Positions 33,833 through 60,712 of a stretch of DNA of 64,000 nucleotides are shown here, in pieces. A model generated the notes under the pieces. The model was not told where the DNA came from. It ran no database searches and worked only from the letters and a program-made list of their open reading frames with translations. The position numbers and the translations under genes are program-made. Origin of the DNA: Candidatus Omnitrophota bacterium (GTDB lineage Bacteria > Omnitrophota > Gorgyraeia > 2-01-FULL-45-10); the NCBI GenBank assembly GCA_026387175.1, contig JAPLME010000006.1, positions 44,078-108,077 of the forward strand, in the 5' to 3' direction. Every line of letters starts with the position of its first letter. The first letter of the stretch is position 1.

Positions 33833-33845
33833 AGGCGTTATTCCT

Positions 33846-35593: not shown

Positions 35594-35597
35594 GAGC

Positions 35598-36296: not shown

Positions 36297-36313
36297 AATT
36301 CACGTCCTTTTAA

Positions 36314-38931: not shown

Positions 38932-38932
38932 C

Positions 38933-43488: not shown

Positions 43489-43492
43489 AGGA

Positions 43493-44584
43493 TCATGCGC
43501 CTTTCGATAAAAATCTGCCCGCCGCCTCCAGCACTTCATCAGCCTTTATGGACTTAAGGCACGACCTATCTTCGCAGATCTTGTATTTAAACTTTTTATA
43601 GCAGGGCCTGCAGGGGATGTCGCCTTTCGATATGACAATATGATCTTTGGACATCGGATACGGCCCGTATATATTTTCATCTACGGGCCCGAATATCGAC
43701 ACCGTATTCAACCCTAAGCCCACCGCCATATGCAGCGGACCGCCGTCATTGGTTATGATAAGCTTGCACCTGTTGATCAATCCTAGAAAATTCCTGAGGT
43801 TCGTTTTGCCGCAGGCCATTATAGCCTTGCTTTTTATCTTACTTTGGATATTATCACATATCTCTGTTTCGTGAGAATCGCCCAGAAGCACCACTTTAGC
43901 GCCGTAACGCTCCGCCAGGCCGTCGCACACCTTCGCGAATCCGTCGCTATCCCAGCGCCTGTGGCGCGCGTCGGCCCCCCAGCTCGCGCCGCATCCGGGT
44001 ATCACGCCTATCAAAGAATCGCTCTCGGTAACACCGTTAGCTTTCAGGAAGTCGTTTGCCCAGGCAATATCTTCGTTCGTTATATAGACTTTGGGGCTTG
44101 GTTTAAGATCCCTTATATTGATATCCAGAAATTTCAATATATCGCAGTAATATTCCACGACATGTTTTTCGTTGAAACCGTCTATATCTATCTTACGGGT
44201 AAGGAACCGGCCTCTCTTCCTGTAATTAAATCCGAATCTTTCCCGTATCCCTATAAGACCTAAGAGCAGGCTATACTGGTACCCCAATGAAAGATCGATG
44301 GCGATGTTGAATCTTTCCCGCATAAGGGTCATCAGGAAGTCCCAGATCAGTCTAAGACATCCCATCTTCGACCGCTCCCATGCTTTCCTGTAATCGTCTT
44401 TCTCGTATATAAAAAACTTATCGATCTTCGGGTTTGATCTTATGACCTCGTAAGATCTCTTATTACAAACGTAGCCTATAAAGCAGTCGCGATATCTGCT
44501 TTTCAATATCTCTACAAGCGGAGTAGAGAATAGGACATCTCCGATGCCAAAGGGATTTATAATAAGGATCTTTTTAATCTTCAT
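43493..44584 (-). CDS. ADP-heptose:LPS heptosyltransferase family (GT9) glycosyltransferase
   Basis: 363 aa; KILIINPFGIGDVLFSTP N-terminus and GT9 GT-B architecture (RfaC/RfaF/RfaQ family). Confidence 0.75.
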   Translation of the reverse strand: MKIKKILIINPFGIGDVLFSTPLVEILKSRYRDCFIGYVCNKRSYEVIRSNPKIDKFFIYEKDDYRKAWERSKMGCLRLIWDFLMTLMRERFNIAIDLSLGYQYSLLLGLIGIRERFGFNYRKRGRFLTRKIDIDGFNEKHVVEYYCDILKFLDINIRDLKPSPKVYITNEDIAWANDFLKANGVTESDSLIGVIPGCGASWGADARHRRWDSDGFAKVCDGLAERYGAKVVLLGDSHETEICDNIQSKIKSKAIMACGKTNLRNFLGLINRCKLIITNDGGPLHMAVGLGLNTVSIFGPVDENIYGPYPMSKDHIVISKGDIPCRPCYKKFKYKICEDRSCLKSIKADEVLEAAGRFLSKGA

Positions 44585-45843
44585 AAGCCGGTGGTCTTGG
44601 ATACCCTGATAATTGCGAGACTTGTACCTATGGCAAACCAGAAGAGGGTCGCCAGATTCAGAGAATATAGATTGGTGTCAAAGAAACTATGAACCAGAAA
44701 AGCGAAGACGCCGATAGATATACCCCAGAGAGCCGTCCGGTAAAAATCGTCTTTGATGACCTTTAACTCTTTTATAACCGCCCGGAAATATAAAATAATT
44801 AGAAATAGGAATCCGGCCAGCCCCACAACTCCAGTATCCGCCGCCATCTGCAGATAACAGTTATGGGCATAGCTCCCTTTCTTGCCTTTCCATTCGTCAT
44901 TCCTGTATTTCATAAAGTTAACGAAGAAAGTATTAAGTCCGTTACCTATCACAGGATGTTTGACGAATATCTGATAGGAAGTGCCAAGCATACTGACTCT
45001 GTCGCTGATGCTGCCCGTTGCGAATATAGCGCGCGTCATCTCGGTCTTGACCAGAACGGAGGCGGAAAGGACCAGGACAAGCAGGAGCACTATCCATATC
45101 TTGCGTTTTGAAAACGCCAGATATAACATGGATATGCCCAAGCCTATCCAGGCGCCTCTGGCCTTGGCCAGAAAAAAAAGATAGAACAATGCTGCCGATG
45201 CAAATCCCGTCAAATATCTGAGCACGGACCTCTTCATATCGAATAATGTGACACAGGCAATAGGCAGGAGCATCAGCAATATCCATGCCGCCAAATCGTT
45301 CGGATATGGAAAACACGCCGTAGGATACCCTCTGAAGAATCCTGCTCCATCGAAAATCGGACGCATACTGAAAGAAGGATAATTATGCAGCAGATCATAT
45401 CCTGTGGTGTAGTGCTGGACAAGGCCATCGATCGTTATTATCGCGATGGATAAAAATGCTACCGTCAAAAGATCCTTCAGCCGTTCCTTAGTCCTTATGG
45501 TGTCTGCCATCACAATACACAAAAATACGTATTTTAAAACTTTTGTAAAAAATGCTTTTATGCTGAGAGACGGATAAGCGGTATTAAAGAAAGAGGGTAG
45601 GATAGCGATAACAAATATTGCCAGGCCGATGCCCATCTCTATTTTTGCCGCCTTCACGTCCCGATTCAATAACTTTTGGGCTATCCACACAGCTATCGCG
45701 ATCGTTATGCCAATTTCTGATATTGATTTTGAAAAAGGCGCGGCGAAGACTACCGCATAGAGGCACCATTTTATCGTTTCACTAAAAATTATATCCAATC
45801 GCTCTCTATTATTCAAAATCCCTCTTTCCTTTATTCCTGCCAA
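44581..45843 (-). CDS. O-antigen ligase / Wzy_C-family polytopic membrane protein (WaaL-like)
   Basis: 420 aa with about 10-12 TM helices and a large loop carrying R..G...H-type Wzy_C features. Confidence 0.6.
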   Translation of the reverse strand: MAGIKERGILNNRERLDIIFSETIKWCLYAVVFAAPFSKSISEIGITIAIAVWIAQKLLNRDVKAAKIEMGIGLAIFVIAILPSFFNTAYPSLSIKAFFTKVLKYVFLCIVMADTIRTKERLKDLLTVAFLSIAIITIDGLVQHYTTGYDLLHNYPSFSMRPIFDGAGFFRGYPTACFPYPNDLAAWILLMLLPIACVTLFDMKRSVLRYLTGFASAALFYLFFLAKARGAWIGLGISMLYLAFSKRKIWIVLLLVLVLSASVLVKTEMTRAIFATGSISDRVSMLGTSYQIFVKHPVIGNGLNTFFVNFMKYRNDEWKGKKGSYAHNCYLQMAADTGVVGLAGFLFLIILYFRAVIKELKVIKDDFYRTALWGISIGVFAFLVHSFFDTNLYSLNLATLFWFAIGTSLAIIRVSKTTGL

Positions 45844-46849
45844 ATCTACCCGTATCTACGAAAGCGAGCCTTACTCCCAGCGTCACCATCAAAATGATAA
45901 CACATCCGATCAGCACGAGAGCCGATTTAAGCGGCAGCCTTTGCACCAGCAGAGCCGATAGCCCGAGCACTACGCATATACCGTATATAGCTATAACGGT
46001 TCTTCTCTTCCTGAATCCCAGAAGAGCTATCCTATGCGACGAGTGGTCACGGCCGCCCTGGAATACGGAGCGTCCCTCGATCGATCTCATCACAGTGACG
46101 AGTATGGTGTCGAATATAGGGTAAGCCAGTATAAGTATCGGCATAGCAAGTGACGTGGTAAGAAATCTTGTGCTCCAGCTTCCCATTACAGCGAGCGCCG
46201 CCAGCACAAAACCTAACACCAGGCTTCCCGTATCTCCCATAAATATGCTCGCCTTTGGGAAATTGTGCCTCAAAAAACCGAGGCCGGCGCCTGCGAGAGC
46301 AAACGCTATGATCGCTACGTCTATCTGATTACTCGTGCACATGACAATCCCGAAGAATACCGAAGCTATCACGGCTATTCCCGCCGAAAGGCCGTTCATG
46401 TTATCCAGAAGATTAAACGCATTGGTGATGCCAACTATCCAGAAGTATGTAAACAGTGTATCAAGATAGTAATTATGCAGAAAGTCCACCCTGACTCCTG
46501 ACTTGATCACTATCATCGCCGCAAGAAATTGGCCTAGTAATTTTACCTCGGGCATCATCCCCATCCTGTCGTCTACAAGGCCGACGATCAGCAGGAATGT
46601 GGCTCCGGTAATGATGCTAACCAATTTGATATCCAATGTAAAGCCGATGGTGGTAATGAGTCCGGCTATAAATGATAGATAGATAGCGACACCTCCCAGA
46701 AGAGCTGTGGGATGGGCATGGACCTTATTGATCTTGGGATGGTCAATATATTTAAGCTTAATGGCAATATTTTTGATGACGGGAGTAATGATATAAGAGA
46801 TCACCGTCGTAAGCACGAAGATTTCGATAACGTTCTTTATCCTCAGCAT
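45809..46849 (-). CDS. Polyprenyl-phosphate hexose/HexNAc-1-phosphate transferase (MraY/WecA/WbpL family)
   Basis: 346 aa polytopic protein; DD motif region and NAFNLLDNMNGL signature of the PNPT family. Confidence 0.75.
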   Translation of the reverse strand: MLRIKNVIEIFVLTTVISYIITPVIKNIAIKLKYIDHPKINKVHAHPTALLGGVAIYLSFIAGLITTIGFTLDIKLVSIITGATFLLIVGLVDDRMGMMPEVKLLGQFLAAMIVIKSGVRVDFLHNYYLDTLFTYFWIVGITNAFNLLDNMNGLSAGIAVIASVFFGIVMCTSNQIDVAIIAFALAGAGLGFLRHNFPKASIFMGDTGSLVLGFVLAALAVMGSWSTRFLTTSLAMPILILAYPIFDTILVTVMRSIEGRSVFQGGRDHSSHRIALLGFRKRRTVIAIYGICVVLGLSALLVQRLPLKSALVLIGCVIILMVTLGVRLAFVDTGRFGRNKGKRDFE

Positions 46850-46865
46850 AAATCCACCCCGACCC

Positions 46866-47834
46866 TTATTTCTTAAAATACCTGATTATATTCATAAGCA
46901 TCTCTTCCAGATCCACCTTCGGCTGAAAACCTATAAGGTTCTTTATCTTCTTAATATCCGGCGCCCTGTGCCTCATATCCTCAAAACCTTTCTCATACGC
47001 CTTCTCGTAGGGAATATGCACAATGGGAGAATCCGATTTGGTGAGCTTCTTTATCTTCACCGCCAGGGCTTGTATCGAGATGGTATTGGGATTACCTATA
47101 TTGAATATCTCCCCCACGGCCTTCCGATTATTCGCAAGGGCCGTTATCGCCCGTACCGCATCCGAGACATAGGTGAAGCTTCTCGTCTGCTTCCCGTCCC
47201 CGTATATTATTATTGGTTTATCTAAGAGCGCGCATTTAACAAAACGCGGTACGACCATGCCGTACATACCGCTTTGGCGCGGACCCACTGTATTAAAAAA
47301 TCTCACGATGACCACCGGCAGCTTCTTCTCGCGCCAGTATGCCAGCGATAAAAATTCGTCCATAGCCTTAGCGCAGGAGTAGCTCCATCTCGAGATCGTG
47401 GTCGGGCCCAGCACCCTGTCATCGTCTTCTTTAAAGATTCTCTTCCCGGGCCTGTCCTTACCGTATATTTCCGAAGTGGACGCTATTATCACTTTCTTCT
47501 TACCAATAGAATTCGCGAGCTCCAGGACGATCTCGGTGCCCTGCACGTTCGTATGCATAGATTCAAGAGGATTGTCTATTATATATTTAACTCCTACGGC
47601 GGCCGCCATATGATATACGGTATCACAGTCTCTTACAAGGCGTTTCATCAGCTTCTCATTCATGATCGTGTCTATATACAGCGAAAATTTCGGATTGAGC
47701 TTCAGATGTTTGATATTTTCCATATTGCCCGTCGATAGATTATCTATGACCGCTACCTCTTCATTTCTCCGTAAGAGCTCTTCCGCGAGATGTGAACCGA
47801 TGAAGCCCGCTCCACCTGTTATAAGACTTTTCAT
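46866..47834 (-). CDS. NAD-dependent nucleotide-sugar epimerase/dehydratase (extended SDR)
   Basis: 322 aa; GGAGFIGSHL Rossmann motif and a YxxxK active site (YSCAK). Confidence 0.8.
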   Translation of the reverse strand: MKSLITGGAGFIGSHLAEELLRRNEEVAVIDNLSTGNMENIKHLKLNPKFSLYIDTIMNEKLMKRLVRDCDTVYHMAAAVGVKYIIDNPLESMHTNVQGTEIVLELANSIGKKKVIIASTSEIYGKDRPGKRIFKEDDDRVLGPTTISRWSYSCAKAMDEFLSLAYWREKKLPVVIVRFFNTVGPRQSGMYGMVVPRFVKCALLDKPIIIYGDGKQTRSFTYVSDAVRAITALANNRKAVGEIFNIGNPNTISIQALAVKIKKLTKSDSPIVHIPYEKAYEKGFEDMRHRAPDIKKIKNLIGFQPKVDLEEMLMNIIRYFKK

Positions 47835-49644: not shown

Positions 49645-51051
49645 TCAACCGACAAGTATCTTTCGCGCCCTCTTCAGGAGCATCTTGAACTGATACGGCG
49701 TCCTCACCTCTACGAGAAGGCCGAGCCATATATGCGGTCTTATGTAAAACCGCGCGTTCGCGCTTTTCAGGCAGCGTTCGAGCATGTCAACGGGAAGGGG
49801 CGAAACCGAAGGAATGAACTGATAGTATAGAAACTTGTTCCAGTCGACATTTTCAAAATCGACTCTTCCCTTCCATTCATCATAGATCGCGCTTCCCGGA
49901 AGCGGCATGAGCGGAGAAAAGCTTGCTCTGTCCAACTTCAATCTTAACGCAAACTCTATGCTCTTCTTGATATCGTCCTCCGTTTCATCGGGATGCCCTA
50001 TAAGAAAAAATCCTGTGACTCTTATCTTTGTATGCTTTTTTACCAGGTTCAGCTTTTCTTCGATCTCCTTCGTCGTAAGGCTCTTTTGCAGTTTTTTCAG
50101 TATTCTGTCCGATCCCGATTCGATACCGATCGCCAAAGAATAGCAGCCCGCGCGCTCCATCAGCTGAAGCAGTTCCTTATCGAGGGCATCTATCCGCACG
50201 CCGTTAGGCAAAGATATCCACACCCTCAGGCCCCGTTCGATAATACCGGACAGCACCTCCCTCGCATACTCTTTGCCCATCGTGAAATTATCGTCTTCTA
50301 TCTGGAACTCCCTGACACCGAATTTTTTATTCAGATACTCTATCTCATCCAGCACGGCGGCGCTGCTTCTCCTGCGCATCTTCCTGCCATGTATCCTGAA
50401 ACTCGCGCAAAATGTGCACGAATAAGGGCATCCGCGGCTTGTAATGATCGGCGCTATCGGAAAAGACCTCGCGAACGTCCCATGAGGCGCTTCCGGGTAT
50501 CTCCTCGGATCCATAAGTTCCCATGCGGGCATCGGCAGGCTGTCCAGGTCGCCTATGTTCCTTATGGGATTGACACATACGGCGCCGGCGGCGTTCCTAT
50601 ACGCGATATTGCTGAGATTTGCCAGAACCGACGTATCTTTTACGTCGCTCCTCTTCAAACCCGCTATCTTGTCTATTATATTTTCGCCCTCTCCCAAGAC
50701 GGCAAGATCGGCATCTTTAAGAAACGCAAGCGTCTGATGCGGGTCGCCTGTCGCATGCGGCCCTCCGACGATTATCAGTGCCTCTTTCATGCGCTGCCGC
50801 GCTATCTCCAGCTGTTTTCTCGCAGTATAGAGCCCGTTCGTATAAAGCTGGAACCCGATCACATCGTACACCTCTCCCTTTAAGCGATCGGCGAAACCTT
50901 CAAGGGAAAGCCTCTCCTTGTCGCAGTCGAGAAATGTGACATCGTGCCCGGCGTTCCTCAACACAGACGCCAGATATCCCAAGCCGAGATTCGGCGCGAT
51001 AGTATAGCAATACTGGCTGATAGGCTTTACTAAAAGCACCCGTGCCATCAA
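49645..51051 (-). CDS. Cobalamin-binding (class B) radical SAM enzyme, paralog 3
   Basis: 468 aa; VLLVKP...LGLGYLAS...GGPH B12 domain and RGCPYSCTFC. Closest paralog of gene 34211-35593. Confidence 0.8.
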   Translation of the reverse strand: MMARVLLVKPISQYCYTIAPNLGLGYLASVLRNAGHDVTFLDCDKERLSLEGFADRLKGEVYDVIGFQLYTNGLYTARKQLEIARQRMKEALIIVGGPHATGDPHQTLAFLKDADLAVLGEGENIIDKIAGLKRSDVKDTSVLANLSNIAYRNAAGAVCVNPIRNIGDLDSLPMPAWELMDPRRYPEAPHGTFARSFPIAPIITSRGCPYSCTFCASFRIHGRKMRRRSSAAVLDEIEYLNKKFGVREFQIEDDNFTMGKEYAREVLSGIIERGLRVWISLPNGVRIDALDKELLQLMERAGCYSLAIGIESGSDRILKKLQKSLTTKEIEEKLNLVKKHTKIRVTGFFLIGHPDETEDDIKKSIEFALRLKLDRASFSPLMPLPGSAIYDEWKGRVDFENVDWNKFLYYQFIPSVSPLPVDMLERCLKSANARFYIRPHIWLGLLVEVRTPYQFKMLLKRARKILVG

Positions 51052-51938
51052 AAGATACCCCGGTAGACCAGCAAATACACAATCGCGCAGTAGCAGAGAA
51101 TGTTCACCAGGAACGGGATGTCTTTCAAAAGTATCTTCTCCGGGTTAGATCCGCCCCGCCTCATATTCACCAGATAGAGATACCTGAATATCCCATATGC
51201 TACGAACGGTATCGTGTATTTAAGCTTATCGGTCCCGTGCTTTGCGACCGTTTCGGCCGAAAGAGCATACAGCGCGTAACTGAGAATGGAGCACCCGGCC
51301 ACTATGGTAATGAGCTGGTCGAGGAACTCAAGGCTGTAGCCTTCTAGGCTTTTTCTGTGCTGCTTCGATCTCTCCAGAAGAAGCGCCATCTCGGCCCGCC
51401 TCTTGCAAAGCGCCAGAAATAATGCAAGCAAAAATGTGCATAAAAGGATCCATGATGATATCAGGGACGTGATACCGCTTACAGAGACACCGGCAAGCAG
51501 CCTAAGGATGAAGGCAAGCGATATGGCAAATACGTCTATGATAGAAATATGCTTTAGCGCCAGATCATATGCGATGTGGAGGACCAGGAATATCACGACT
51601 ATCGCAAACAATTTGCCGGAAAGCATCCACGCCCAGAAAAGGCCTGTCGATACAAGCGCGAACGATACACCCGCTGCCGGGCCTATATTCAGCTCGCCCT
51701 TGGCAATGGGCCTCTTACATTTATCGGGATGGTGCATATCCTCTTTCCTGTCTATGATATCGTTCAGGATATAAGAGGCCGATGATACTATGCAGAATAT
51801 GCAGAATATTTCAATAGTAGAAAAGAGCGTGGCGGGGTCACTGAGCTTCTTAGCGAAGAAAAGACCGGCAAAAACAATGATATTCTTTGTCCATTGCTCC
51901 GGACGCATGGATATTATTATCTTTTTGAGAATCTTCAT
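51048..51938 (-). CDS. UbiA-family polyprenyl-phosphate transferase (decaprenyl-phosphate phosphoribosyltransferase-like)
   Basis: 296 aa with about 8-9 TM helices. NDIIDRKED motif (Asp-rich motif 1) and HPDKCKRPIAKGEL resemble DPPR-synthase-type UbiA members. Confidence 0.65.
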   Translation of the reverse strand: MKILKKIIISMRPEQWTKNIIVFAGLFFAKKLSDPATLFSTIEIFCIFCIVSSASYILNDIIDRKEDMHHPDKCKRPIAKGELNIGPAAGVSFALVSTGLFWAWMLSGKLFAIVVIFLVLHIAYDLALKHISIIDVFAISLAFILRLLAGVSVSGITSLISSWILLCTFLLALFLALCKRRAEMALLLERSKQHRKSLEGYSLEFLDQLITIVAGCSILSYALYALSAETVAKHGTDKLKYTIPFVAYGIFRYLYLVNMRRGGSNPEKILLKDIPFLVNILCYCAIVYLLVYRGIF

Positions 51939-51948
51939 TAGCGGTCCT

Positions 51949-52851
51949 TTATTCTTTGTAAGCGTATGCGGTTATGAGCCCGCTGTTCTTCATCATGCCC
52001 AGCACTGCATCGATAGGCAGCGATAACGCATAAAAAAGCGGGTTCGTGAACGATACATTAATGCCGTGAGCATTCAGGAAACACTGCAGGCTCCCTATTG
52101 TGCCGAACGAAAAAAGATCATGCCGGATCTTCACCTTTCCAAATTCGCTCTTCTTCAAAATCGCGGTGAGCGATTTCGGAGAAAAATGGTAGAGATGCTT
52201 AGGCAAAAAAAGATGGAACCAGTATCGCTTAAATAAGCGAGCTTCCAGCGAATCGATATTTTGAACACCGATGACCGCAACCCCGCCCTTTTTAAGCAGC
52301 CTGTAGGCCTCCTTCAGCACCGACGAGGGATCGTACATATGCTCAAGCGTCCACCAGAATGTTATCGCATCGAAGCTCTCGGGCTTAAAATGAGCGTCCA
52401 CAAGGTCCCCCTCACGGATATCCAGTCCCAGCACATCCCTGCCATACCCGGTATAACCGATATCTATGCCTTTAACATCCCATCCGAGGGCCTTGAGTAC
52501 ATATATATACCTGCCGCTGCCGCACCCCACATCAAGGAGCGATCCCTTCCGCCTTAAAGGTATCTTCCTGAAAATATTAAAATACAATTTTTCGTAAAAT
52601 GCCGGCTTTCTTTCCGTCTTCTCCGGATCGTCCTCCAAATAATACTTGAGGAGAGATTCCCTGGATGGCCGGGGGCTCAGAAAAGCAAGCCCACATTTCC
52701 CGCATCTTACCACATTATATTCTCTCTTGCAGCGCTGTTTGATATTTGCCGCTTTCAAAAGCAGGGACGGATCATCGTTCCCGCACAATCCGCATCGTAC
52801 GGTTTCCAACTGTATACTGCTTTCGTCTATTGAGCTTCTATTTTGAGCCAT
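51949..52851 (-). CDS. Class I SAM methyltransferase with an N-terminal Cys4 zinc ribbon
   Basis: CGLCG...x17...CGKCG ribbon, then LDVGCGSGRY motif I. Confidence 0.7.
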   Translation of the reverse strand: MAQNRSSIDESSIQLETVRCGLCGNDDPSLLLKAANIKQRCKREYNVVRCGKCGLAFLSPRPSRESLLKYYLEDDPEKTERKPAFYEKLYFNIFRKIPLRRKGSLLDVGCGSGRYIYVLKALGWDVKGIDIGYTGYGRDVLGLDIREGDLVDAHFKPESFDAITFWWTLEHMYDPSSVLKEAYRLLKKGGVAVIGVQNIDSLEARLFKRYWFHLFLPKHLYHFSPKSLTAILKKSEFGKVKIRHDLFSFGTIGSLQCFLNAHGINVSFTNPLFYALSLPIDAVLGMMKNSGLITAYAYKE

Positions 52852-52857
52852 CGCGAA

Positions 52858-54705
52858 TTATCTCTTCGATTCCGGCCCTGTCGGCGGCCTTGAAAAACGG
52901 TAAACATAGTATAACCCAACAGCGCCTATCATCATCAGGTAAGGCACTATAGGCGTCCTGTACCTGACGGACACTATTGTAATGAGCGAGCAATGGGCTA
53001 ATATGGAGTAAAATATGACCGCAAAGATCAAAAAGATCGATTTTTGCTTACGGGATTTCCGGAAAACCAGCCAGAGTCCTATCAGGAATATCAAATATAC
53101 GTAAAATTCCATGCTTGAAGCAAAGACGTTCGGCACCCTTGAATTATTAATGAGAAGTATAGGGTCGAAGAACCCGAAGCAGGGCCATATAAAATAATTC
53201 AGGAACCTTTTAGTGTAAATACGGCAGGCTGTAGCGGCTACGGCCGCAGGCTCTTTCAGTGCGACGCGTAACGAACCGGCGGGATCTTTAAACGGATTGA
53301 CCCCCAGAGCGTCAAGTCCCCGGTTATCCGGGCTTTTGTCGGGCCACGGGCTCTGAGCGTTCCAGCAGGCTTCGAGCCTGAAACCGGACTTCACCACCAA
53401 ATTGAACTTACCGTCATTCAGGTAATTAATAAATGTTACGGGGGCGATCAAAAAAGACGCAACGAGAACGGTGATAAGGGTATTCACGGCCTTCTTTCGA
53501 AACGTAATTTTATTCACCGCAAAAAGCTCCGTTACGAAGAATAGGACAGGCAGAGCCATGAATAAGCTCCTTGTGATACAGAGCAACCCCAGGACGAGGC
53601 CGGCGGTCACCCTGTAGAGCCTATTATCGGGCTTCCTGAAACATCGGAGATACGAAAGGACAAACGCAGCTAATAGCGGCAATATAAGGGCTTCTCCACC
53701 CAGCACCACCATATACATTATCAGTATCTGGCTCATACTTACGAGTAAAGCCGTTAATATGGAGATGCTCCTGACCCCGAAAAGCTCTTTCGCTATATAG
53801 TAGGATAAGACTGAAAGCGCTCCTCCAAGCAGGCTTTGAACGAATGTAGCCGCGTAAAAATTATGACCGAAACATTTATATACAAGAGATAGGAGGACTA
53901 TATATCCCGGCTCCCAGACACCGGGAAACAGGGTTCCCCCTTTTAGTATCTTCTCCGGGTTCGTTACCATGGTCCATGCGTTTGCGTTATAGGTACGGCC
54001 GTCATCGCTCGAGTCGACAAAGACGCTTCCTCCTCCCGTGGTCTTCAGTATGTGGAACGCGAATACGATCCTGACTATCGTGCCGACCAGAAAAAGAAGC
54101 GCAATCACCTTTCGCTCATCCTTGAAGAACGACACTATCCTAGTATAAAGAAGTTGCGCCAACCCGTCTATGCGCGTGATGGCAGCAAATAAAGCCGCTA
54201 TAACCGCTGCGGCGGCCACATACCCTGAAAATCCTTTAAGCAGACATGTCACAGCCAAATGAATAGACGCAATAACGAGCGGTATGAAGAAAAAATCCTT
54301 TCTAAGAAAAAAACCGGCGCAAAACATGGATGCAAGAAATACAGTTGTGACCGTTCCGATATAAAGATAATAGATCCCGGACAAATAAGAAGAGCCCGAT
54401 ATCTGGACATTGAGATCTAATGTTAGAAATGAGAGGTGCAAGGCAAGGCCTATTGGTATGATCTTGTGCAGATTTGTCTTAAAATCGGTCTTGAAAAAAA
54501 TCGAATGAAAAGCGCTGTAAAGACATAGGACCGACCAGCCCGCCAGAGGCACATAGAGCTTTCTAAAGGGAAGGTTTATATAGACTGCCGTGCCCATTAT
54601 GATAAAAGCTATATAGATCACCAGATAGGCCGCCATACCGAAAACTATCTGATCTGCGCCGTAAGAAACCGGATCCAAGCTATGCTTTTTTTTCAATATA
54701 GCCAT
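52858..54705 (-). CDS. GT-C-fold polytopic glycosyltransferase (ArnT/PMT family, GT39/GT83-like)
   Basis: 615 aa with about 13+ TM helices. The segment LSVLSYYIAKELFGVRSISILTALLVSMSQILIMY is typical of the ArnT/PMT_2 family. Confidence 0.65.
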   Translation of the reverse strand: MAILKKKHSLDPVSYGADQIVFGMAAYLVIYIAFIIMGTAVYINLPFRKLYVPLAGWSVLCLYSAFHSIFFKTDFKTNLHKIIPIGLALHLSFLTLDLNVQISGSSYLSGIYYLYIGTVTTVFLASMFCAGFFLRKDFFFIPLVIASIHLAVTCLLKGFSGYVAAAAVIAALFAAITRIDGLAQLLYTRIVSFFKDERKVIALLFLVGTIVRIVFAFHILKTTGGGSVFVDSSDDGRTYNANAWTMVTNPEKILKGGTLFPGVWEPGYIVLLSLVYKCFGHNFYAATFVQSLLGGALSVLSYYIAKELFGVRSISILTALLVSMSQILIMYMVVLGGEALILPLLAAFVLSYLRCFRKPDNRLYRVTAGLVLGLLCITRSLFMALPVLFFVTELFAVNKITFRKKAVNTLITVLVASFLIAPVTFINYLNDGKFNLVVKSGFRLEACWNAQSPWPDKSPDNRGLDALGVNPFKDPAGSLRVALKEPAAVAATACRIYTKRFLNYFIWPCFGFFDPILLINNSRVPNVFASSMEFYVYLIFLIGLWLVFRKSRKQKSIFLIFAVIFYSILAHCSLITIVSVRYRTPIVPYLMMIGAVGLYYVYRFSRPPTGPESKR

Positions 54706-54715
54706 TGCGTGAGGC

Positions 54716-55609
54716 TCATCCTTTCTTGGCGATCGCGACGATATCGCCTGACGGTATTATAAAATTATGATACTTTAACCGCGGAGGCAGGCGTCCGATA
54801 AGGCCTTCCATAAGGCTTACAGCGCTGCTCTTCTTTTTTGCCGATTCCTCGCTCTTCTGCCTCATATACTCCCCGGCATAATAGGGATTTATCGATTTGA
54901 AAGCGCTTTTAAATCCCAGTATCTTGAAACCCATCGTCCTGAGAAAAGCGTTAAGGTTCTTTTTCGAAAAATATACAAGATGCTGCCTGTGGATATAAGG
55001 CCATCTCTTTCCCGTGAACTTCGCGAAAAGGCTGCTTGTATCTACAGTAACTATAACAGCTATCCCTCCGGGCCTCAGCATCTTATACACCTTTTCCACC
55101 GCGATCCTGGCGCCGTTAAGGTGCTCCAGCACATCGGTCATTATTATCATATCATAATGATCCGACGGCATCTCTTTCGCTCTCACAAAATCAAGGGCCT
55201 CCACCCTGGAACCGAATCTGGCCTTTGCGACGCGTGCGGCCTCCTCCGATATGTCCACGCCGTAGACATCCCATCCGAACTCCTCTCCGACTTCCATGCA
55301 TATACCTGTTGCGCACCCTATATCTAAAAGCCGGCCGCGATGAGGCGTAAATCGGGAAAGCGACTTAAATAGGCACCGGAACGTCAGATGTCGCATCTTC
55401 CTGTGCATCTCCTCATCTTTTCCGACAATGCCCCATACCTCATGATATTTCGCATATACCCGCTCTATCTCTTCATTATTTAATATAGGGTAACTTAGCC
55501 AGAGCCCGCATCCGCTGCACCTGATTATGGAATACTTACCGTCCATATCATAAAGCGGAAGGTACTCCGCGGAACCGCATACATCGCATTTGATCTTATA
55601 TGCCATCAC
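54716..55609 (-). CDS. Class I SAM methyltransferase with an N-terminal Cys4 zinc ribbon (paralog of 51949-52851)
   Basis: CDVCG...CSGCG ribbon, then LLDIGCATGI motif I. Confidence 0.7.
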   Translation of the reverse strand: MMAYKIKCDVCGSAEYLPLYDMDGKYSIIRCSGCGLWLSYPILNNEEIERVYAKYHEVWGIVGKDEEMHRKMRHLTFRCLFKSLSRFTPHRGRLLDIGCATGICMEVGEEFGWDVYGVDISEEAARVAKARFGSRVEALDFVRAKEMPSDHYDMIIMTDVLEHLNGARIAVEKVYKMLRPGGIAVIVTVDTSSLFAKFTGKRWPYIHRQHLVYFSKKNLNAFLRTMGFKILGFKSAFKSINPYYAGEYMRQKSEESAKKKSSAVSLMEGLIGRLPPRLKYHNFIIPSGDIVAIAKKG

Positions 55610-56853
55610 TTCACCTGGGCCTTCGCCGGCTGGGGGTTCTTGAACCGTTTCTCGATCGAATTGCGAAGCTTTATTATATCATCCGAGCTGAAGGCCTTCG
55701 TAGATATCTTAGTCGTGTAATCGCCGGGCCTGCCCTTGAACCATGCATGGTCATAATCGTCGGTAAAATTTATGTCGAAATTCTCTTTATTCTTATAGAT
55801 AAGCGATCCGGGATATGGAGTATAGACCGTGATATCTATATCGTCGAGACCGGCCTCTTCCAGAAAATCCGTCGTCTCCTTTATCGACTCCCTGTTCTCG
55901 CCGGGAAGGCCTATTATAAAAAAGCCTTTCACGCGGATACCATATCTGTGGCATAGCTTTATAGCTTCCAGGTTCTTCTTTACCGTCTCGCCTTTATTGA
56001 TCGTATCGAGTATGCGCTGGGAACCCGACTCGATCCCGACGCCCACTTCTACGCAGCCGGATTCCCGCATCCTACGCAATATATCCCCGTCAACGGTATC
56101 AGACCGTATAAAGCACCTGTATATAACGCTCAATTGCTTCAATCGATCGCATATCTCTTTCATCCTTTTTCTATCGACCGTCATCGTATCATCGAAGAAC
56201 ATGACCGCCTCATAGCCGTATCGCTTTACCAGTAACGATACCTCTTCGAACACATTCTGCGGGCTCCTCATCCTAAGGGTCTTGCCCCAGGCGTTATTCG
56301 CGCAGAATTTACAACCGAAAGGACAGCCGCGCGAGGTCACCAGCGTCGTGGTCAATTTACCGTCAAGATAATACCGATAGCTCTTGATGTCGATCGTGTC
56401 CCTGTCCGGGAACGGGAAGCTGTTGATATCGGCATAGTCGCACTGGGTTACCTGAGACTGCTCCGTTGAGGCCTCTTCCCGCCGTACGATATCAAGGATA
56501 GCCCTCTCCCCCTCCCCCTTCACCACAACATCGAACTCGCTAAAAGCGTCTTCGGGCTTGCCCGAAACGTGGGGGCCGCCCAGCACATATAGCGGGGATC
56601 TGGCCCGGTTTATCTTTTTAACCTGCTTTACCAGGCGCATAACGGTCGGAAACTGCGGAGTATTGGAATAAAAGCCCACGATATCGGCGTCGATAGATTC
56701 CGGAAGAGGCTTCTCGTCATTCATATCGATGTAAGAGATATCGTTGTAGCCGTTCTGTTTGAGATACGCGATAAGGTAGAGAAGCCCGAGCGACGGAAAT
56801 ACTTTCTCGTTTATCAGAAAATCGGAATTTGGATTTATGAAAAGTATTTTCAT
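55606..56853 (-). CDS. Cobalamin-binding (class B) radical SAM enzyme, paralog 4
   Basis: 415 aa; N-terminal B12-like domain (ILFINP...LGLLYLIAYL...GGPH) and SRGCPFGCKFC. Confidence 0.8.
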   Translation of the reverse strand: MKILFINPNSDFLINEKVFPSLGLLYLIAYLKQNGYNDISYIDMNDEKPLPESIDADIVGFYSNTPQFPTVMRLVKQVKKINRARSPLYVLGGPHVSGKPEDAFSEFDVVVKGEGERAILDIVRREEASTEQSQVTQCDYADINSFPFPDRDTIDIKSYRYYLDGKLTTTLVTSRGCPFGCKFCANNAWGKTLRMRSPQNVFEEVSLLVKRYGYEAVMFFDDTMTVDRKRMKEICDRLKQLSVIYRCFIRSDTVDGDILRRMRESGCVEVGVGIESGSQRILDTINKGETVKKNLEAIKLCHRYGIRVKGFFIIGLPGENRESIKETTDFLEEAGLDDIDITVYTPYPGSLIYKNKENFDINFTDDYDHAWFKGRPGDYTTKISTKAFSSDDIIKLRNSIEKRFKNPQPAKAQVK

Positions 56854-56860
56854 TGTTCTA

Positions 56861-58033
56861 TCATCCCTTATGTTTCTCTTCCAGGCACTCCTCGTACAGC
56901 TTCATTATATCCGCGGCGAGCCTGCTCTTTGAGTATTTCGTCCGGACGGATTCTCTGCCATGCGCCCCCATCGCCAGCCGCCCGGAGCGGTCATCCATCA
57001 ACCTGATGATCTTGCGGGCGAGATCCGCATGATCGTTCGAATCGGCCAGCAGCCCGTTGTAGCCGTCCTTGACGAGATCGACGACGCCTCCTACGGCGGT
57101 CGCTATAACGGGTTTGGCCGACGCCATGGCCTCGATCAACGATACTGGAGTTCCCTCATTCAGAGACGTCAGCACCAGCAGGTCCAGGTCCGAATATACG
57201 GATGCCAGATCCTCTATCCAGCCCGTAAATATGACATGATGCTCCAGGCCGATGGCCTTCGCTTCCTCTTTAAGAAACTGGTTAAGCTCTCCGTCCCCTA
57301 CTACCACAAACCTGATATCGGCGCCGGGTCTTTCATTTAATACGGATCGCGCCGCCTTCAGAAACATCTTATGGTTTTTGATAGGGACCAGGCGCCCCAC
57401 TATCCCGATAAGCATGACCTTATCATCGACACCCAGTCTTTTTCTGAACCAGCCTCTGTTCTTATCGCATTCAAGGAACCTGCCAAGATCAAGACCAAGC
57501 GGTATGACGACGCTCTTCCGCTCCTCTGCGACCCTCAGTCTGTTGATCAAATCATTGCGCACCGCCTCGCTGACGGTTATCACCCTGTCCGTATATAACG
57601 CCAAAAATTTTTCTACGCAAACAAATATCCTGGCCTTCAGCGGACTGAAATAACCGTCGAAGACGTGCCCATGGAAAGTGTGGATCTTTATAGGGACGCC
57701 GGCGAATATCGCGGCGAGCCTGCCGAGCGCTCCCGCCTTAGCCGTGTGCGTATGCACAATGTCGGGTTTCTCGGACCTCATGATGCTGTAAAGCTTTAAA
57801 AACGTCTTGAGGTCATTTTTTAATGATATCTCCCTGCCCATCTCGGGAACGACAACAGGCTCTACACCATAGTCTTTGGCGAGATAGCCCATATCTCCCT
57901 CCGACTTGCTAACCGTTCCGCAAACAAGCGTATCCTTATATCCATTGCCGTTTAAAGAGCTCGACAGCAATATCGAATGTATGGCCGGACCACCTATATT
58001 AAGCCGAGTTATTATCCTGAGGATCTTAACCAT
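56861..58033 (-). CDS. GT4 (GT-B) glycosyltransferase
   Basis: 390 aa; N-terminal Glyco_trans_4-like domain (HTHTAKAG) and a C-terminal Glycos_transf_1 domain with an E-x7-E region. Confidence 0.75.
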   Translation of the reverse strand: MVKILRIITRLNIGGPAIHSILLSSSLNGNGYKDTLVCGTVSKSEGDMGYLAKDYGVEPVVVPEMGREISLKNDLKTFLKLYSIMRSEKPDIVHTHTAKAGALGRLAAIFAGVPIKIHTFHGHVFDGYFSPLKARIFVCVEKFLALYTDRVITVSEAVRNDLINRLRVAEERKSVVIPLGLDLGRFLECDKNRGWFRKRLGVDDKVMLIGIVGRLVPIKNHKMFLKAARSVLNERPGADIRFVVVGDGELNQFLKEEAKAIGLEHHVIFTGWIEDLASVYSDLDLLVLTSLNEGTPVSLIEAMASAKPVIATAVGGVVDLVKDGYNGLLADSNDHADLARKIIRLMDDRSGRLAMGAHGRESVRTKYSKSRLAADIMKLYEECLEEKHKG

Positions 58034-58045
58034 GGTTCTTCGGTC

Positions 58046-58324
58046 CTATATCAATTTAGTGAACGCGATAAAAATAACGTAGAAGATCGCGGAGCACAAG
58101 AGCCACCCCGCGATAATAAGCCCTGCGTGTTTCCGGCACATATTAAAAACCTCTGTGAAAAATCCGTAACTGGCTGAAGAGAGAATGTTGTGGCGCGCGT
58201 AGATCAGGATGGGGGCCGCGATATTTCTTGTACATGAATAAAATATGGCCGATCTAAATGAACTTGACAGGCCGACCATTATCCTATACGTCAAGCTGTC
58301 CGCAACAATTTTCTGATATACCAT
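58046..58324 (-). CDS. Hypothetical small membrane protein
   Basis: 92 aa ORF with a hydrophobic C-terminal helix, coupled between GT4 and the downstream gene. No family recognised. Confidence 0.35.
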   Translation of the reverse strand: MVYQKIVADSLTYRIMVGLSSSFRSAIFYSCTRNIAAPILIYARHNILSSASYGFFTEVFNMCRKHAGLIIAGWLLCSAIFYVIFIAFTKLI

Positions 58325-58331
58325 CTTCCGA

Positions 58332-58838
58332 TCAGCCCTTATTAATCACTTTTATGACCGTCCAGGTGACATTATAATTTTTTGTTTCGAAACTGAACCC
58401 AAGGCCTATATTAAACACTCCCGCTCCGGCATACATGCGTAAGCTATCGAGCCTTTTATACGCAAGCATTTCAATTAAAACGGTTACTCTTTTAGAAGTC
58501 GGGTCAATAAACGCCTTCGCTTCTCCGGCTGCGGCAGAATCTTTTAGCGTCATCTCCACAGGCTCGACTTTGAGTATCTTTTCTATGCGCGCTATAATAG
58601 TCCCATCGGCACCCCGCATCACATCGCCCTCTTTCATGATATCGGTCACAAAAACAGGTACCAACGCAACGGCCTCGCATCGTATATGCACATTTTCGAC
58701 CTTCACCCATGAAGGATCATCGGCGAGCCTTATCCATTTAAACGCGAAGAGCGCAATAAAGGCTATGACGAAAAGAACGAACAGATCAAAGATATTTATC
58801 AGTCCGAAAATCCTTCCCTTTTCATCGATAACCTTCAT
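58332..58838 (-). CDS. DUF4330-like protein (N-terminal TM anchor plus beta-rich domain)
   Basis: 168 aa; MKVIDEKGRIFGLINIFDLFVLFVIAFIALFAF fits the remembered DUF4330 N-terminal pattern. Uncertain. Confidence 0.4.
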   Translation of the reverse strand: MKVIDEKGRIFGLINIFDLFVLFVIAFIALFAFKWIRLADDPSWVKVENVHIRCEAVALVPVFVTDIMKEGDVMRGADGTIIARIEKILKVEPVEMTLKDSAAAGEAKAFIDPTSKRVTVLIEMLAYKRLDSLRMYAGAGVFNIGLGFSFETKNYNVTWTVIKVINKG

Positions 58839-58852
58839 ACCGTCTCCCTTTT

Positions 58853-60712
58853 TTAATTGATATATTTTTTTGCTTTGTAATAAAGAATAGCGAGATATTC
58901 GTGCAGTATGCCCCTTATCTGTTTTAATTCAATGCCATGCTCCCTTGAGTAATAGCTGCCTTTTTTTATGGGAACATAATAAATGTTCATTCCTTTCAGG
59001 TACTTATCGCACAACAGCTTCACCCTCAACATATGATAAGGAGAGCTTACGATTATGGCGCTCGTCCATCCCCTCGCCCCAGCAAGGTCTTTTAAGTGAA
59101 GTATCATTTCATAGGTATTGGCTGGGGATTCGTCCAATAGTATCGCTTCGGGCTTCACTCCCAACTCGACAGAAAGCGCTTTCATGACCTGCGCCTCCCG
59201 CATGATAAAGCTATATCCGCTCGAATACAGTATCTTGTCGGAATAATGTGATTTGTACAGATCTATAGCAAGGGCTACTCTCTCTTCATAGCTCTGTCCG
59301 ACTTTGCCGGATTCCCCTACGCCGCCGCCCAAAACCATTATCACGTCCGCCTTCGCGGGCGCATCGCTGATCTTCAGGGGGTTTGCCATATACCATAAGA
59401 GAGATGTATGGAATAATACGGCGTAAACGAGCAATGCCCCGGCAGCGACCGGCAGAAACCGTCTTTTTGTGCCTTTGTATATCTTTACCAGGTTCGCTTT
59501 CCATAACGTATCTTTTTGTTTTGCCTTTTCCTGCGCAACCTGCTCCACCAGGGCCGACATCTGCGCCACCTTGTTGGCCCACGAATTCTTCTCTGCCGTC
59601 TCCATAAAAAGCTGGCGCTCGGCCTCGCTTACGGGCTTCTCTATGGCTTCGCGCACTTGCGCGGAAAAGGCCTCCGCTGACTCGGCGACCATTACCACGG
59701 CGCCGTTCTCGGAGTTGAATTTCACGACTTCCGGCAAACCCGTGGAAACTACCTTCTTGCCGAGCGAGAGATACTCGTTCAGTTTAGTCGGATAGACGTT
59801 CCTGGTATACTCGGTTATCTTATAGGGTATCAATGCGACATCAAACTCCCGCACATATAGCGGCAACTCATCCCGTCCCTTTTGGCCGAGGAAAAAGACA
59901 TTCGGCAGATCCTTAACCTGTGAGGTATCGGTCTGTATCGGCCCACAGAATACAAAGTTGGCGTCTTTGTTGCGCGTCGCCGCCGTGCGCACCAGATCGA
60001 AATCTATCCATTTATGGATGCCCCCCAGATACCCGACGATCGGATGCCCTATACGCCCTATGTCCTCCGGAACCAGCGAGGTATTGGTCAGGGCTTTCGC
60101 GAAATTCTCAATATTGACGCCAAAAGGAAAGTAATGGACCTTCTTGCTCCACTGCGAACAGTATCTGAAAAGCTCCATGCTGGTCACGAATACGAGATCC
60201 GACCGCTTCACCATCTTCTCTTCCGTGCGCTTTATATTCTTAGCGCCCTTGGAGCTCACCTGGAAGGAATCTATACAATAATAGATAAGGACTTTCGGGT
60301 CTATCTTCTCGATTATGTCCAGGCTCAATCCTGTAGGCAGAAAGTCCCATATTATCGGATCAGAGAAACCCACCGCCTTAAGCCATTTGAAGAGGACCGA
60401 GAATACGAGCTTGCGGTTCAAAAATCTGGCGGGGCGCAAATACGGAAACGGCAATACGAGCGGCGAATAGACATACAGGCCGTCCTCTATTTTCCTGATG
60501 CCGTGCAGCCCTTTTCCCCAGTTGGCAAGGCGGCTTCGTATCCTGCCGATATCCCGCACATTAGGAGCCCTGGCGCCCGTATTTTCTATAAAAAGCACCC
60601 TATCGCCGCTTCTGGCGAGCCTCGTCATGATCTCCTGATGGCCCTGCCAAATGAAATCCCAATCGATGCTTGATATGCATATAATATTCTGATGTTTTTG
60701 CATGTTTTCCAT
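58853..60712 (-). CDS. Fusion protein: N-terminal GT-B (GT4-like) glycosyltransferase, then a TM helix, then a C-terminal DUF218 (YdcF/ElyC-like) domain
   Basis: 619 aa single ORF. Residues ~1-400 are GT-like. A hydrophobic helix LPVAAGALLVYAVLFHTSLLWYMA follows. The C-terminus carries ADVIMVLGGG...SSGYS...SSPYHMLR, characteristic of DUF218. Confidence 0.65.
   Translation of the reverse strand: MENMQKHQNIICISSIDWDFIWQGHQEIMTRLARSGDRVLFIENTGARAPNVRDIGRIRSRLANWGKGLHGIRKIEDGLYVYSPLVLPFPYLRPARFLNRKLVFSVLFKWLKAVGFSDPIIWDFLPTGLSLDIIEKIDPKVLIYYCIDSFQVSSKGAKNIKRTEEKMVKRSDLVFVTSMELFRYCSQWSKKVHYFPFGVNIENFAKALTNTSLVPEDIGRIGHPIVGYLGGIHKWIDFDLVRTAATRNKDANFVFCGPIQTDTSQVKDLPNVFFLGQKGRDELPLYVREFDVALIPYKITEYTRNVYPTKLNEYLSLGKKVVSTGLPEVVKFNSENGAVVMVAESAEAFSAQVREAIEKPVSEAERQLFMETAEKNSWANKVAQMSALVEQVAQEKAKQKDTLWKANLVKIYKGTKRRFLPVAAGALLVYAVLFHTSLLWYMANPLKISDAPAKADVIMVLGGGVGESGKVGQSYEERVALAIDLYKSHYSDKILYSSGYSFIMREAQVMKALSVELGVKPEAILLDESPANTYEMILHLKDLAGARGWTSAIIVSSPYHMLRVKLLCDKYLKGMNIYYVPIKKGSYYSREHGIELKQIRGILHEYLAILYYKAKKYIN

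Follow-up and report, generated by a model that had tools for sequence, protein, structure and literature searches.

The best-known lipid-linked pentofuranose donors are those of the tuberculosis cell wall, and these serve as drug targets. Use of such donors by Gram-negative bacteria on O antigens was shown only in 2024 (PMC11127046), in Citrobacter youngae, whose O antigens are decorated with side chains of alpha-ribofuranose or alpha-xylofuranose by a three-component system (Kelly et al., PNAS 2024, PMC11127046). The components are a polyprenyl-phosphate phosphoribosyltransferase (PPPRS) fused to a HAD phosphoribose-phosphatase (ORF15), a flippase with four transmembrane (TM) segments (ORF14; the type is EmrE/ArnE-like, or GtrA-like in mycobacteria) and a glycosyltransferase of the GT-C type that founded family GT136 (ORF12); an optional GalE-like short-chain dehydrogenase/reductase (SDR; ORF13) converts ribofuranose to xylofuranose, and DprE1/E2 homologues are present where arabinofuranose is made (PMC11127046). 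The PPPRS products characterized so far, in mycobacterial arabinan, Pseudomonas pilin modification by TfpW and the Citrobacter O antigen, are all donors for GT-C enzymes or precursors of such donors (PMC11127046). We have analysed a stretch of 64,000 nucleotides from a Candidatus Omnitrophota bacterium (assembly GCA_026387175.1, contig JAPLME010000006.1, positions 44,078 to 108,077; the window hereafter), in which a UbiA-superfamily gene and a GT-C gene share a block with two methyltransferase genes, and we lean, if only slightly, towards reading this block as a variant of the extracytoplasmic pentofuranosylation systems, with a PPPRS supplying the adjacent GT-C.

The UbiA protein, a bare UbiA domain of 296 aa, scored 300.7 bits against the NCBIfam model for decaprenyl-phosphate phosphoribosyltransferase (DPPRS; NF008977, cutoff 234) and 80.5 bits against Pfam UbiA (PF01040), and other UbiA-superfamily models (heme O synthase, 38 bits; UbiA, 29; MenA-type and GGGP-synthase models) gave 25-53 bits, far under their cutoffs. 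Mycobacterial Rv3806c (PDB 8j8j) aligned with it at E=3.7e-34 over residues 6-287, and the two Rv3806c entries were its only relatives of solved structure; this full-length match, together with 300.7 bits against at most 53, bears out an earlier note on the same DNA, which had looked to the DPPRS clade rather than to quinone or heme O enzymes. In the alignment to 8j8j, 11 of the 12 substrate residues of Rv3806c are retained: identical pairs are R22 and R12, K28 and K18, Y70 and Y56, N73 and N59, D77 and D63, K87 and K73, R90 and R76, Y138 and Y124, K143 and K129, and K208 and K196 (Rv3806c first), Y157 is replaced by F143, a natural mycobacterial variant, and the sole real change is Q135 to H121. 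Mutagenesis and structure have shown that those Rv3806c residues bind Mg2+ and the ribose, 5-phosphate and pyrophosphate of phosphoribosyl pyrophosphate (PRPP), in a phosphoribose site not common to other UbiA enzymes (PMC10994848), N73 and D77 being Mg2+/PRPP ligands (PMC10994848, PMC11127046). Moreover, N59, D60, D63 and D67 and the R/E loop IV motif K179-R-R-x-E183 are invariant in 17 homologues spanning 44-81% identity, as are most of the mapped PRPP-site positions. On this evidence, the UbiA protein is almost certainly a PRPP-dependent PPPRS, that is, the maker of a lipid-linked ribose donor.

The 615-aa protein encoded nearby has a GT-C fold, as the earlier note had proposed. Pfam PMT_2 matched residues 270-423 at 33.6 bits (gathering score 26.1), no NCBIfam model matched and no PDB sequence did so even at E<=1; NCBI names the protein 'family 39'. 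An AlphaFold model built from a 32-sequence subfamily alignment is confident (pLDDT 91.6, pTM 0.91), and in a Foldseek comparison with the PDB all 12 matches at E<=0.001 were GT-C enzymes (TM-scores 0.30-0.45 relative to the query), including AglB (7.9e-6), PglB, STT3, ArnT and Pmt4. The comparison with ArnT and EmbB that the earlier note had called for thus came out in favour of ArnT only, EmbB (E=0.3) following far behind and AftA (E=0.71) matching as poorly; with no DprE1/E2 in the 64 kb, these poor matches tell against the analogy with arabinan biosynthesis that the same note had drawn. The acidic motif of the GT-C (D231-S-S-D234-D235) lies directly after the first core TM helix, matching the rule for GT-C enzymes stated in PMC11127046, and by the positive-inside rule its loop would face the periplasm. 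Within the FVDSSDDGRTYN motif, D235 is invariant among the 32 subfamily sequences, D234 is at least 90% conserved and S233 is nearly invariant.

The canonical TM1 of the GT-C begins only at about residue 197. The domain in front of it (residues 1-196), modelled alone, reached pLDDT 89.8, had no fold match in the PDB (best Foldseek E=1.0, TM-score 0.21) and found nothing in Pfam at E<=5 beyond noise. Subfamily members of about 600 aa retain it even at 17% identity; P53, W57 and Y112 do not vary among them, R48 and Y115 hardly do, and by the positive-inside rule these conserved residues would face the periplasm. When 1.84 billion cluster representatives were searched with a profile, 56 clusters fell into the subfamily at E<1e-30 and 528 at E<1e-10. 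In species-representative genomes, a 10-sequence alignment of the subfamily hit 72 stretches without a true relative among them, and a word-indexed search of proteins with the GT-C profile brought in nothing beyond generic PMT_2 proteins.

The four open reading frames (ORFs) that the earlier note had described, including a UbiA gene with an NDIIDRKED motif and the 615-aa GT-C, are all present where it had placed them, on the minus strand (Table 1). They are separated by 10, 6 and 10 bp and overlapped by 4 bp on each side by flanking radical S-adenosylmethionine (SAM) genes, which indicates a single operon; one gene, for the methyltransferase MT_a, stands between the UbiA and GT-C genes. The gene order of the window is repeated in L001 and L002, with GT-Cs 66% and 62% identical to that of the window. 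In L003/L004/L089 (35%) the order is rSAM_b - GT-C - MT_b - MT_a - UbiA - GT2, where rSAM_a and rSAM_b are the radical SAM genes on the two sides of the block, MT_b is the second methyltransferase and GT2 is a membrane-anchored family 2 glycosyltransferase. In L090 (35%) it is rSAM_b - GT-C - UbiA - rSAM_a - GT2, without methyltransferases, and L087 (39%) reads rSAM_b - GT-C - MT_b up to the contig end. The four genes therefore co-occur outside the window, in L001, L002 and L003/L004/L089, as the earlier note's reading had required. We argue against a chance arrangement, since the profile scores are high and relatives at 35-66% GT-C identity have the whole block too. In five distinct loci (the window, L001, L002, L003/L089 and L090) the UbiA gene lies 0-2 genes from the GT-C gene, identities to the window in the UbiA-bearing loci being 66-81% for UbiA and 35-66% for GT-C. 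The GT-C and UbiA genes are accordingly a tighter pair than all four genes together, and L090 shows that the methyltransferases are dispensable for the pair.

MT_a and MT_b match Pfam Methyltransf_23 (81.7 and 89.3 bits) and each other (27% identity over 233 aa, E=1e-23), and the alignment spans their zinc ribbons, so that the earlier description of paralogous Cys4 methyltransferases flanking the GT-C stands. The Cys4 pattern is kept in nine orthologous or related sequences (L001, L002, L003, L087, L091), and MT_b is weakly like zinc-binding sugar 3-C-methyltransferases, namely TcaB9 and D-mycarose 3-C-methyltransferase (PDB 5t64, 4rv9; E about 8e-4). Sugar methylation by these enzymes, which the earlier note had included in the module, fared less well: in L090 the GT-C is paired directly with UbiA and no methyltransferase, and the role is one that we only infer. 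What the earlier note had overlooked is that the block is bracketed by two paralogous genes for radical SAM proteins with B12-binding domains (rSAM_a and rSAM_b, 29% identity, E=7e-50). Both have PF02310 and PF04055, with CPYSCTFC and CPFGCKFC visible as CxxxCxxC motifs, and can be assigned on these features to class B (cobalamin-type), their use of cobalamin itself being putative. The best PDB match of rSAM_b is the sugar diol-dehydratase AprD4 (6fd2, E=3.8e-25), and rSAM_a matches 9ccb (2.5e-25) and AprD4 (1.2e-18); AprD4 is not known to use B12. In 8 of 8 loci with a recognizable orthologue (60-77% identity), rSAM_b stands immediately upstream of GT-C or MT_b.

Genes with B12-domain radical SAM products are found in the surrounding glycan cluster at 34211-35710 and 42136-43539 as well as on the two sides of the block, and 63565-63957 probably encodes a radical-SAM C-terminal fragment. 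The radical SAM proteins of the cluster all score far under every NCBIfam equivalog cutoff (HpnJ, BchE, PhpK, AprD4 and others). The density of these genes suggests extensive C-methylation or deoxygenation of the glycan. A more far-reaching proposal, which we put forward tentatively and think rather unlikely, is that the unit represents a periplasmic glycan-modification system in its own right, in which a GT-C with the N-terminal six-TM domain is obligately paired with a B12-type radical SAM enzyme, the sugar (here polyprenyl-phosphate-ribofuranose from the PPPRS) is C-methylated or deoxygenated at the lipid stage by the radical SAM enzymes and the methyltransferases, and the N-terminal domain replaces the flippase or delivers the donor. 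If such lipid-stage tailoring did take place, the pentofuranose would be new to bacterial glycans.

We suggest that the PPPRS feeds the GT-C, since the two genes are apparently co-transcribed, their adjacency is conserved in the clade and GT-C enzymes use PPPRS products, and additionally since the other GT-C of the window has a donor synthase of its own, the DPMS/ArnC/GtrB-like GT2. In the pathway that we envisage, the UbiA-family enzyme would move 5-phosphoribose from PRPP to polyprenyl phosphate at the cytoplasmic face, a step that is well supported; the lipid is probably undecaprenyl phosphate, because the window also encodes UppS. An unlinked phosphatase would presumably take off the 5-phosphate to leave polyprenyl-phosphate-ribofuranose, which may then be tailored by the two radical SAM enzymes, the two methyltransferases and possibly the GalE-like SDR, all of them cytoplasmic, before it would get to the periplasmic face. 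There, the D234/D235 loop of the GT-C, in a fold established by the model, would put the pentofuranose, the presumed donor sugar, onto a surface glycan that the surrounding WecA-like, GT2, GT4, GT9 and Wzy_C-like genes may assemble. Since DprE1/E2 are absent, ribofuranose is expected (or xylofuranose, if the SDR is an epimerase), not arabinofuranose, and we consider that the transferred sugar is probably ribofuranose and not arabinose; the GalE-like SDR near the UbiA gene makes xylofuranose possible. This SDR is encoded three genes downstream of UbiA and is 76% identical in L003, its NCBIfam matches (LegB-like, RmlB, ArnA-like) all fall under their cutoffs, and it could act in nucleotide-sugar modification or in epimerization of the lipid-linked pentose.

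Domains of the SMR, GtrA, MATE, PAP2, FAD_binding_4/ALO (DprE1) and classical DprE2-type SDR families were found in none of the 61 window genes. No ORF of less than 260 aa with at least three hydrophobic segments, and no four-TM flippase, was found on either strand of the 64 kb, and there is no HAD phosphatase in the UbiA block. The sole HAD protein of the window is GmhB-like and is encoded 19 kb from the block, adjoining the other GT-C; it may yet act in trans as the phosphoribose phosphatase. Two small ORFs were considered as flippase candidates and rejected: the 92-aa ORF shows little conservation, no Pfam match and no more than one hydrophobic segment, and the 121-aa ORF has one TM segment and no Pfam match.

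Several observations weigh against the supply of the GT-C by the PPPRS. Of the three components that define the published systems, two are missing, namely the phosphatase and the flippase. More distant relatives of the GT-C, in L091 (33% identity), L092/L093 (29%) and L096 (27%), have no UbiA gene within 8-10 kb in a six-frame hidden Markov model (HMM) search, and none was found in L094 (28%), a short contig where an adjacent B12-radical-SAM gene is present; the contigs of L088 and L094/L095 are too short to inform on GT-C neighbours. The GT-Cs of L091, L092/L093, L094 and L096 still carry the N-terminal domain, and in L091, L092 and L096 there are B12-radical-SAM genes and a full-length orthologue of the membrane-anchored GT2 (34-42% identity), which directly follows the GT-C in L091 and is next to or near it in L092 and L096. 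The synteny of GT-C and UbiA is limited to a narrow Omnitrophota clade, the GT-C subfamily has its ancestral and best conserved partners in the TM-anchored GT2 and the B12-type radical SAM enzymes, and the UbiA gene looks like a clade-specific insertion. Approached from the opposite side, DPPRS-like genes were present in 593 or more stretches of a collection of species-representative genomes, in many phyla and mostly without an adjacent GT-C, and when the 80 closest of these loci (41-49% identity) were taken together with L005 and L006, only about 5 of the 82 had a PMT_2 GT-C within 7 kb; adjacency is therefore not the rule for the DPPRS-like family, and we rejected the generalization that its genes adjoin GT-Cs. 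Two such GT-C-linked loci, L036 and L017, were confirmed by Pfam, and the further three are presumably L048, L073 and L085, which cluster with L017. The UbiA-less distant relatives leave the donor link plausible, not proven. Of the earlier claim that the module makes and transfers a polyprenyl-phospho-pentose, the identity of the PPPRS and the fold of the GT-C hold, and the feeding of one by the other comes down to synteny in a narrow clade.

Considered against this background, the GT-C might instead take its donor, a hexose or modified hexose, from the membrane-anchored GT2 or another GT2 in the manner of Gtr/Arn-type systems, with the B12 radical SAM enzymes as its true partners and the PPPRS inserted in one clade, where it would serve the other GT-C of the window, an unlinked one, or a second reaction. 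We regard this as unlikely, and nevertheless as the alternative that deserves most attention, given that the GT2 orthologue and the B12-radical-SAM genes accompany the GT-C in the UbiA-less L091, L092 and L096, that the C-terminal TM helices of the GT2 resemble those of lipid-directed GT2s, and that UbiA is far more conserved than the GT-C (66-81% against 33-66% identity), which puts the two genes under different constraints. However, only the first 100-130 residues of this GT2 resemble DPMS/ArnC, and weakly so (E=2.6e-5 and 1.4e-4), with chondroitin synthase matched at least as well; the better DPMS/ArnC-like GT2 adjoins the other GT-C; and a PPPRS needs a GT-C consumer, the nearest of which is one gene away in the window and directly adjacent in L090. 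A variant of our preferred explanation, rather than a contradiction of it, would have the PPPRS and the GT-C cooperate on another acceptor, either lipid A or the lipopolysaccharide (LPS) core, as with ArnT, or a protein, as in O-glycosylation by PMT or TfpW. ArnT and PMTs are among the fold matches, the Pfam family is PMT_2, the window has LPS functions (LpxL-like acyltransferase, LptC/A, LptB, GT9) and pilin arabinosylation of the TfpW type uses a PPPRS (PMC11127046); yet the GT-C gene stands among genes for glycan assembly and not for lipid A, none of the adjacent genes encodes a pilin or another target protein, and the GT-C lacks a large periplasmic domain that might hint at the acceptor, and we hold such acceptors to be improbable. 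That the UbiA homologue is an ordinary aromatic, quinone or lipid-ether prenyltransferase, found in a glycan cluster by coincidence, we find scarcely credible: it belongs to the superfamily (PF01040) and JGI labels its relatives '4-hydroxybenzoate polyprenyltransferase', but the quinone, heme O and GGGP models fall far short of the DPPRS score (25-53 against 300.7 bits) and the phosphoribose residues, specific to Rv3806c according to PMC10994848, are conserved in it.

The neighbours of DPPRS-like genes in other phyla merit description in their own right. The 80 closest loci come from Acidobacteriota, Chloroflexota, Zixibacteria, WOR-3, Planctomycetota, Bacteroidota and others, and the commonest neighbours among the 82 are GT4 (28 loci), DUF362 (22), SDR epimerase (18) and STAS proteins (13). 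The DUF362 protein (about 365 aa; L005 and L015 are among its 22 loci) is the most frequent specific neighbour and often lies directly downstream, the small STAS-domain protein is encoded upstream of the DPPRS-like gene, and an unannotated family of about 340 aa occurs in 10 of the 82 loci; these contexts look like a different, uncharacterized use of polyprenyl-phosphate-ribose chemistry. ORFs with four hydrophobic segments lie directly beside the UbiA gene in two loci (L008:1662-2012, 116 aa; L043:10901-11272, 123 aa), and two of the neighbours scanned match Pfam Multi_Drug_Res (SMR), the flippase type that is expected from the published systems and missing from the window; these two matches are presumably the L008 and L043 ORFs. 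A further locus of a Candidatus Omnitrophota metagenome-assembled genome, L015, has a 46%-identical PPPRS followed by a 490-aa protein with about nine TM segments and no Pfam match (L015:10962-12434), with DUF362 next. With a PPPRS in this other context, there are no fewer than two types of PPPRS locus in Omnitrophota.

The 61 called genes of the window all lie on the minus strand, every 2-kb bin has a negative GC skew and the cumulative skew declines steadily to -4.0, as would suit a long portion of a single replichore whose genes are extremely co-oriented. The first 30 kb carry housekeeping and LPS-transport genes, including UppS, LptB, LptC/A and the LpxL-like acyltransferase, and from about 30.7 kb to the window end there is a single large glycan cluster, as judged by Pfam and NCBIfam. 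It encodes a WecA-like initiating transferase, a Wzy_C/O-antigen-ligase-like protein, a GT9, nine GT2 enzymes, and GT4 and GT1 enzymes. Its other products include at least four B12-type radical SAM proteins, further methyltransferases, an SGNH hydrolase and a polysaccharide deacetylase. Within this cluster, the UbiA/GT-C block is part of a larger conserved unit, of about 16 genes (Table 1), the upstream part of which (56861-60712) has the same gene order in L001, L002, L003, L087 and L089.

Table 1. Features of the UbiA/GT-C block, of its conserved surroundings and of the second lipid-linked-sugar module, in window coordinates
Feature	Position	Strand	Remarks
UbiA-superfamily PPPRS/DPPRS-family protein, 296 aa	51048-51938	-	
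NDIIDRKED, first Asp-rich motif, UbiA residues 59-67	51738-51764	-	N59/D63 = Rv3806c N73/D77
MT_a, zinc-ribbon SAM methyltransferase, 300 aa	51949-52851	-	
MT_a Cys4 zinc ribbon, C20/C23/C50/C53	52693-52794	-	
GT-C, 615 aa	52858-54705	-	
GT-C core, residues 197-615	52858-54117	-	TM1, periplasmic loop, further TM helices, ~95-aa periplasmic insert
D231-S-S-D234-D235 acidic motif, first periplasmic loop	54001-54015	-	candidate catalytic base
GT-C N-terminal extension, residues 1-196	54118-54705	-	six TM helices and a beta-hairpin
MT_b, zinc-ribbon SAM methyltransferase, 297 aa	54716-55609	-	
MT_b Cys4 zinc ribbon, C8/C11/C31/C34	55508-55588	-	
rSAM_a, B12-binding-domain radical SAM	49645-51051	-	Pfam; overlaps UbiA gene by 4 bp
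rSAM_b, B12-binding-domain radical SAM	55606-56853	-	Pfam; overlaps MT_b by 4 bp
Membrane-anchored GT2, catalytic domain and ~4 C-terminal TM helices	48635-49729	-	Pfam, hydropathy
Extended SDR (GalE/UDP-xylose-synthase/4,6-dehydratase-like)	46866-47834	-	Pfam Epimerase 186 bits; TGGAGFIGS and YSCAK motifs
WecA/MraY-family polyprenyl-phosphate sugar-1-phosphate transferase	45809-46849	-	Pfam, NCBIfam; syntenic in L001, L003, L089
Wzy_C/O-antigen-ligase-like	44581-45843	-	Pfam, NCBIfam; syntenic in L001, L003, L089
GT9 heptosyltransferase-like	43493-44584	-	Pfam, NCBIfam; syntenic in L001, L003, L089
GT4	56861-58033	-	Pfam, NCBIfam
92-aa ORF	58046-58324	-	conserved upstream part of unit
DUF4330	58332-58838	-	Pfam, NCBIfam
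GT1-DUF218 fusion	58853-60712	-	Pfam, NCBIfam
DPMS/ArnC/GtrB-like GT2 (second module)	35598-36296	-	E=1.6e-19 to Pyrococcus DPMS, whole catalytic domain
B12-type radical SAM gene (second module)	34211-35710	-	
121-aa single-TM ORF (second module)	33846-34211	-	
Second PMT_2 GT-C (second module)	32453-33832	-	
GmhB-like HAD phosphatase (second module)	31848-32456	-	170.7 bits vs cutoff 178

The membrane-anchored GT2 matches Pfam Glycos_transf_2 at 89.9 bits and also Glyco_trans_2_3 and Glyco_transf_21. Its longest ORF and the 3' end of rSAM_a overlap by 85 bp; as the orthologues are 331-340 aa long, translation probably begins at the ATG at 49630 (MISVITPAYNN...). A small ORF (92-136 aa) lies between the DUF4330 and GT4 genes in the window, L001, L002, L003 and L087, with conservation limited to an N-terminal E-S-x-S-Y-R/K-I motif and a C-terminal basic tail. 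The product of the GT1-DUF218 gene is a TuaH-like GT1 domain fused to a C-terminal DUF218 domain (YdcF/SanA/ElyC-like) and shows 60-63% identity to its counterparts in L087 and L089; a link of DUF218 proteins to undecaprenyl-phosphate metabolism has been drawn, and the fusion may bear on lipid-carrier handling in the glycan cluster. Separate from the UbiA block, there is a second lipid-linked-sugar module at 31848-36296, whose GT-C is also paired with a B12-type radical SAM enzyme; the two GT-Cs of the window, compared as possible paralogues, have no detectable similarity. Seven GT2 genes (232-385 aa) run head to tail from 35598 to 42139, also on the minus strand, followed by a radical SAM gene and the GT9, Wzy_C-like and WecA-like genes.

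Omnitrophota are a phylum of uncultured, ultra-small bacteria, and the UbiA/GT-C locus would carry lipid-linked pentofuranose chemistry into this phylum. Further, it defines a GT-C subfamily that has an unassigned six-TM N-terminal domain and is constantly associated with B12-type radical SAM enzymes, a lead that can be tested in the search for new sugar-tailoring chemistry and for the way in which donors are flipped without a flippase gene. The partners and products of the DPPRS-like genes in the 593 or more stretches are largely unexplored. The practical value is modest and lies in enzymes for glycoengineering and in the better annotation of genes now called 'glycosyltransferase family 39' or '4-hydroxybenzoate polyprenyltransferase'.

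Finally, considering the described systems one beside another, the window shares with the Gtr-type (GtrA/GtrB/GtrC) and ArnC/ArnE-F/ArnT systems the wiring of a membrane-associated GT2 to a GT-C that the distant relatives suggest, but it lacks a GtrA or SMR flippase, and its membrane-anchored GT2 is not clearly GtrB/ArnC-like. With ArnT, PMT and oligosaccharyltransferase (GT-C_A; GT83, GT39, GT66) the window GT-C has in common the fold, the PMT_2 family and an acidic first-loop motif after TM1, whereas the roughly 196 residues before the canonical TM1 and the lack of a large soluble periplasmic domain set it apart. The mycobacterial decaprenyl-phospho-arabinose pathway (Rv3807c, DprE1/DprE2, Rv3789, Emb/Aft) is like the proposed one in its first enzyme, of which the UbiA protein is a full-length homologue, and in its logic, a lipid-linked pentofuranose being used by GT-C enzymes outside the cytoplasm; in contrast, the window has no DprE1/E2, PAP2 phosphatase or GtrA-like protein, its lipid is likely undecaprenyl and not decaprenyl phosphate, and its context resembles LPS or exopolysaccharide loci rather than arabinogalactan. 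Compared with C. youngae, the PPPRS is without the fused HAD domain of ORF15, no four-TM flippase gene corresponds to ORF14 in the 64 kb, and the GT-C, of the PMT_2 type, would differ from ORF12 (GT136) in having the extra N-terminal six-TM domain and no C-terminal carbohydrate-binding module; the accessory genes, two for B12-type radical SAM enzymes and two for zinc-ribbon methyltransferases, and the Omnitrophota lineage are also particular to the window. Pentofuranosylation by a PPPRS, a flippase and a GT-C outside the actinobacteria had already been characterized in 2024 (PMC11127046), and the idea of the earlier note is correct in kind: as in C. youngae, a UbiA-family PPPRS gene lies near a GT-C gene inside a surface-glycan locus of a diderm bacterium, with no DprE1/E2 in the window and with a GalE-like SDR nearby.

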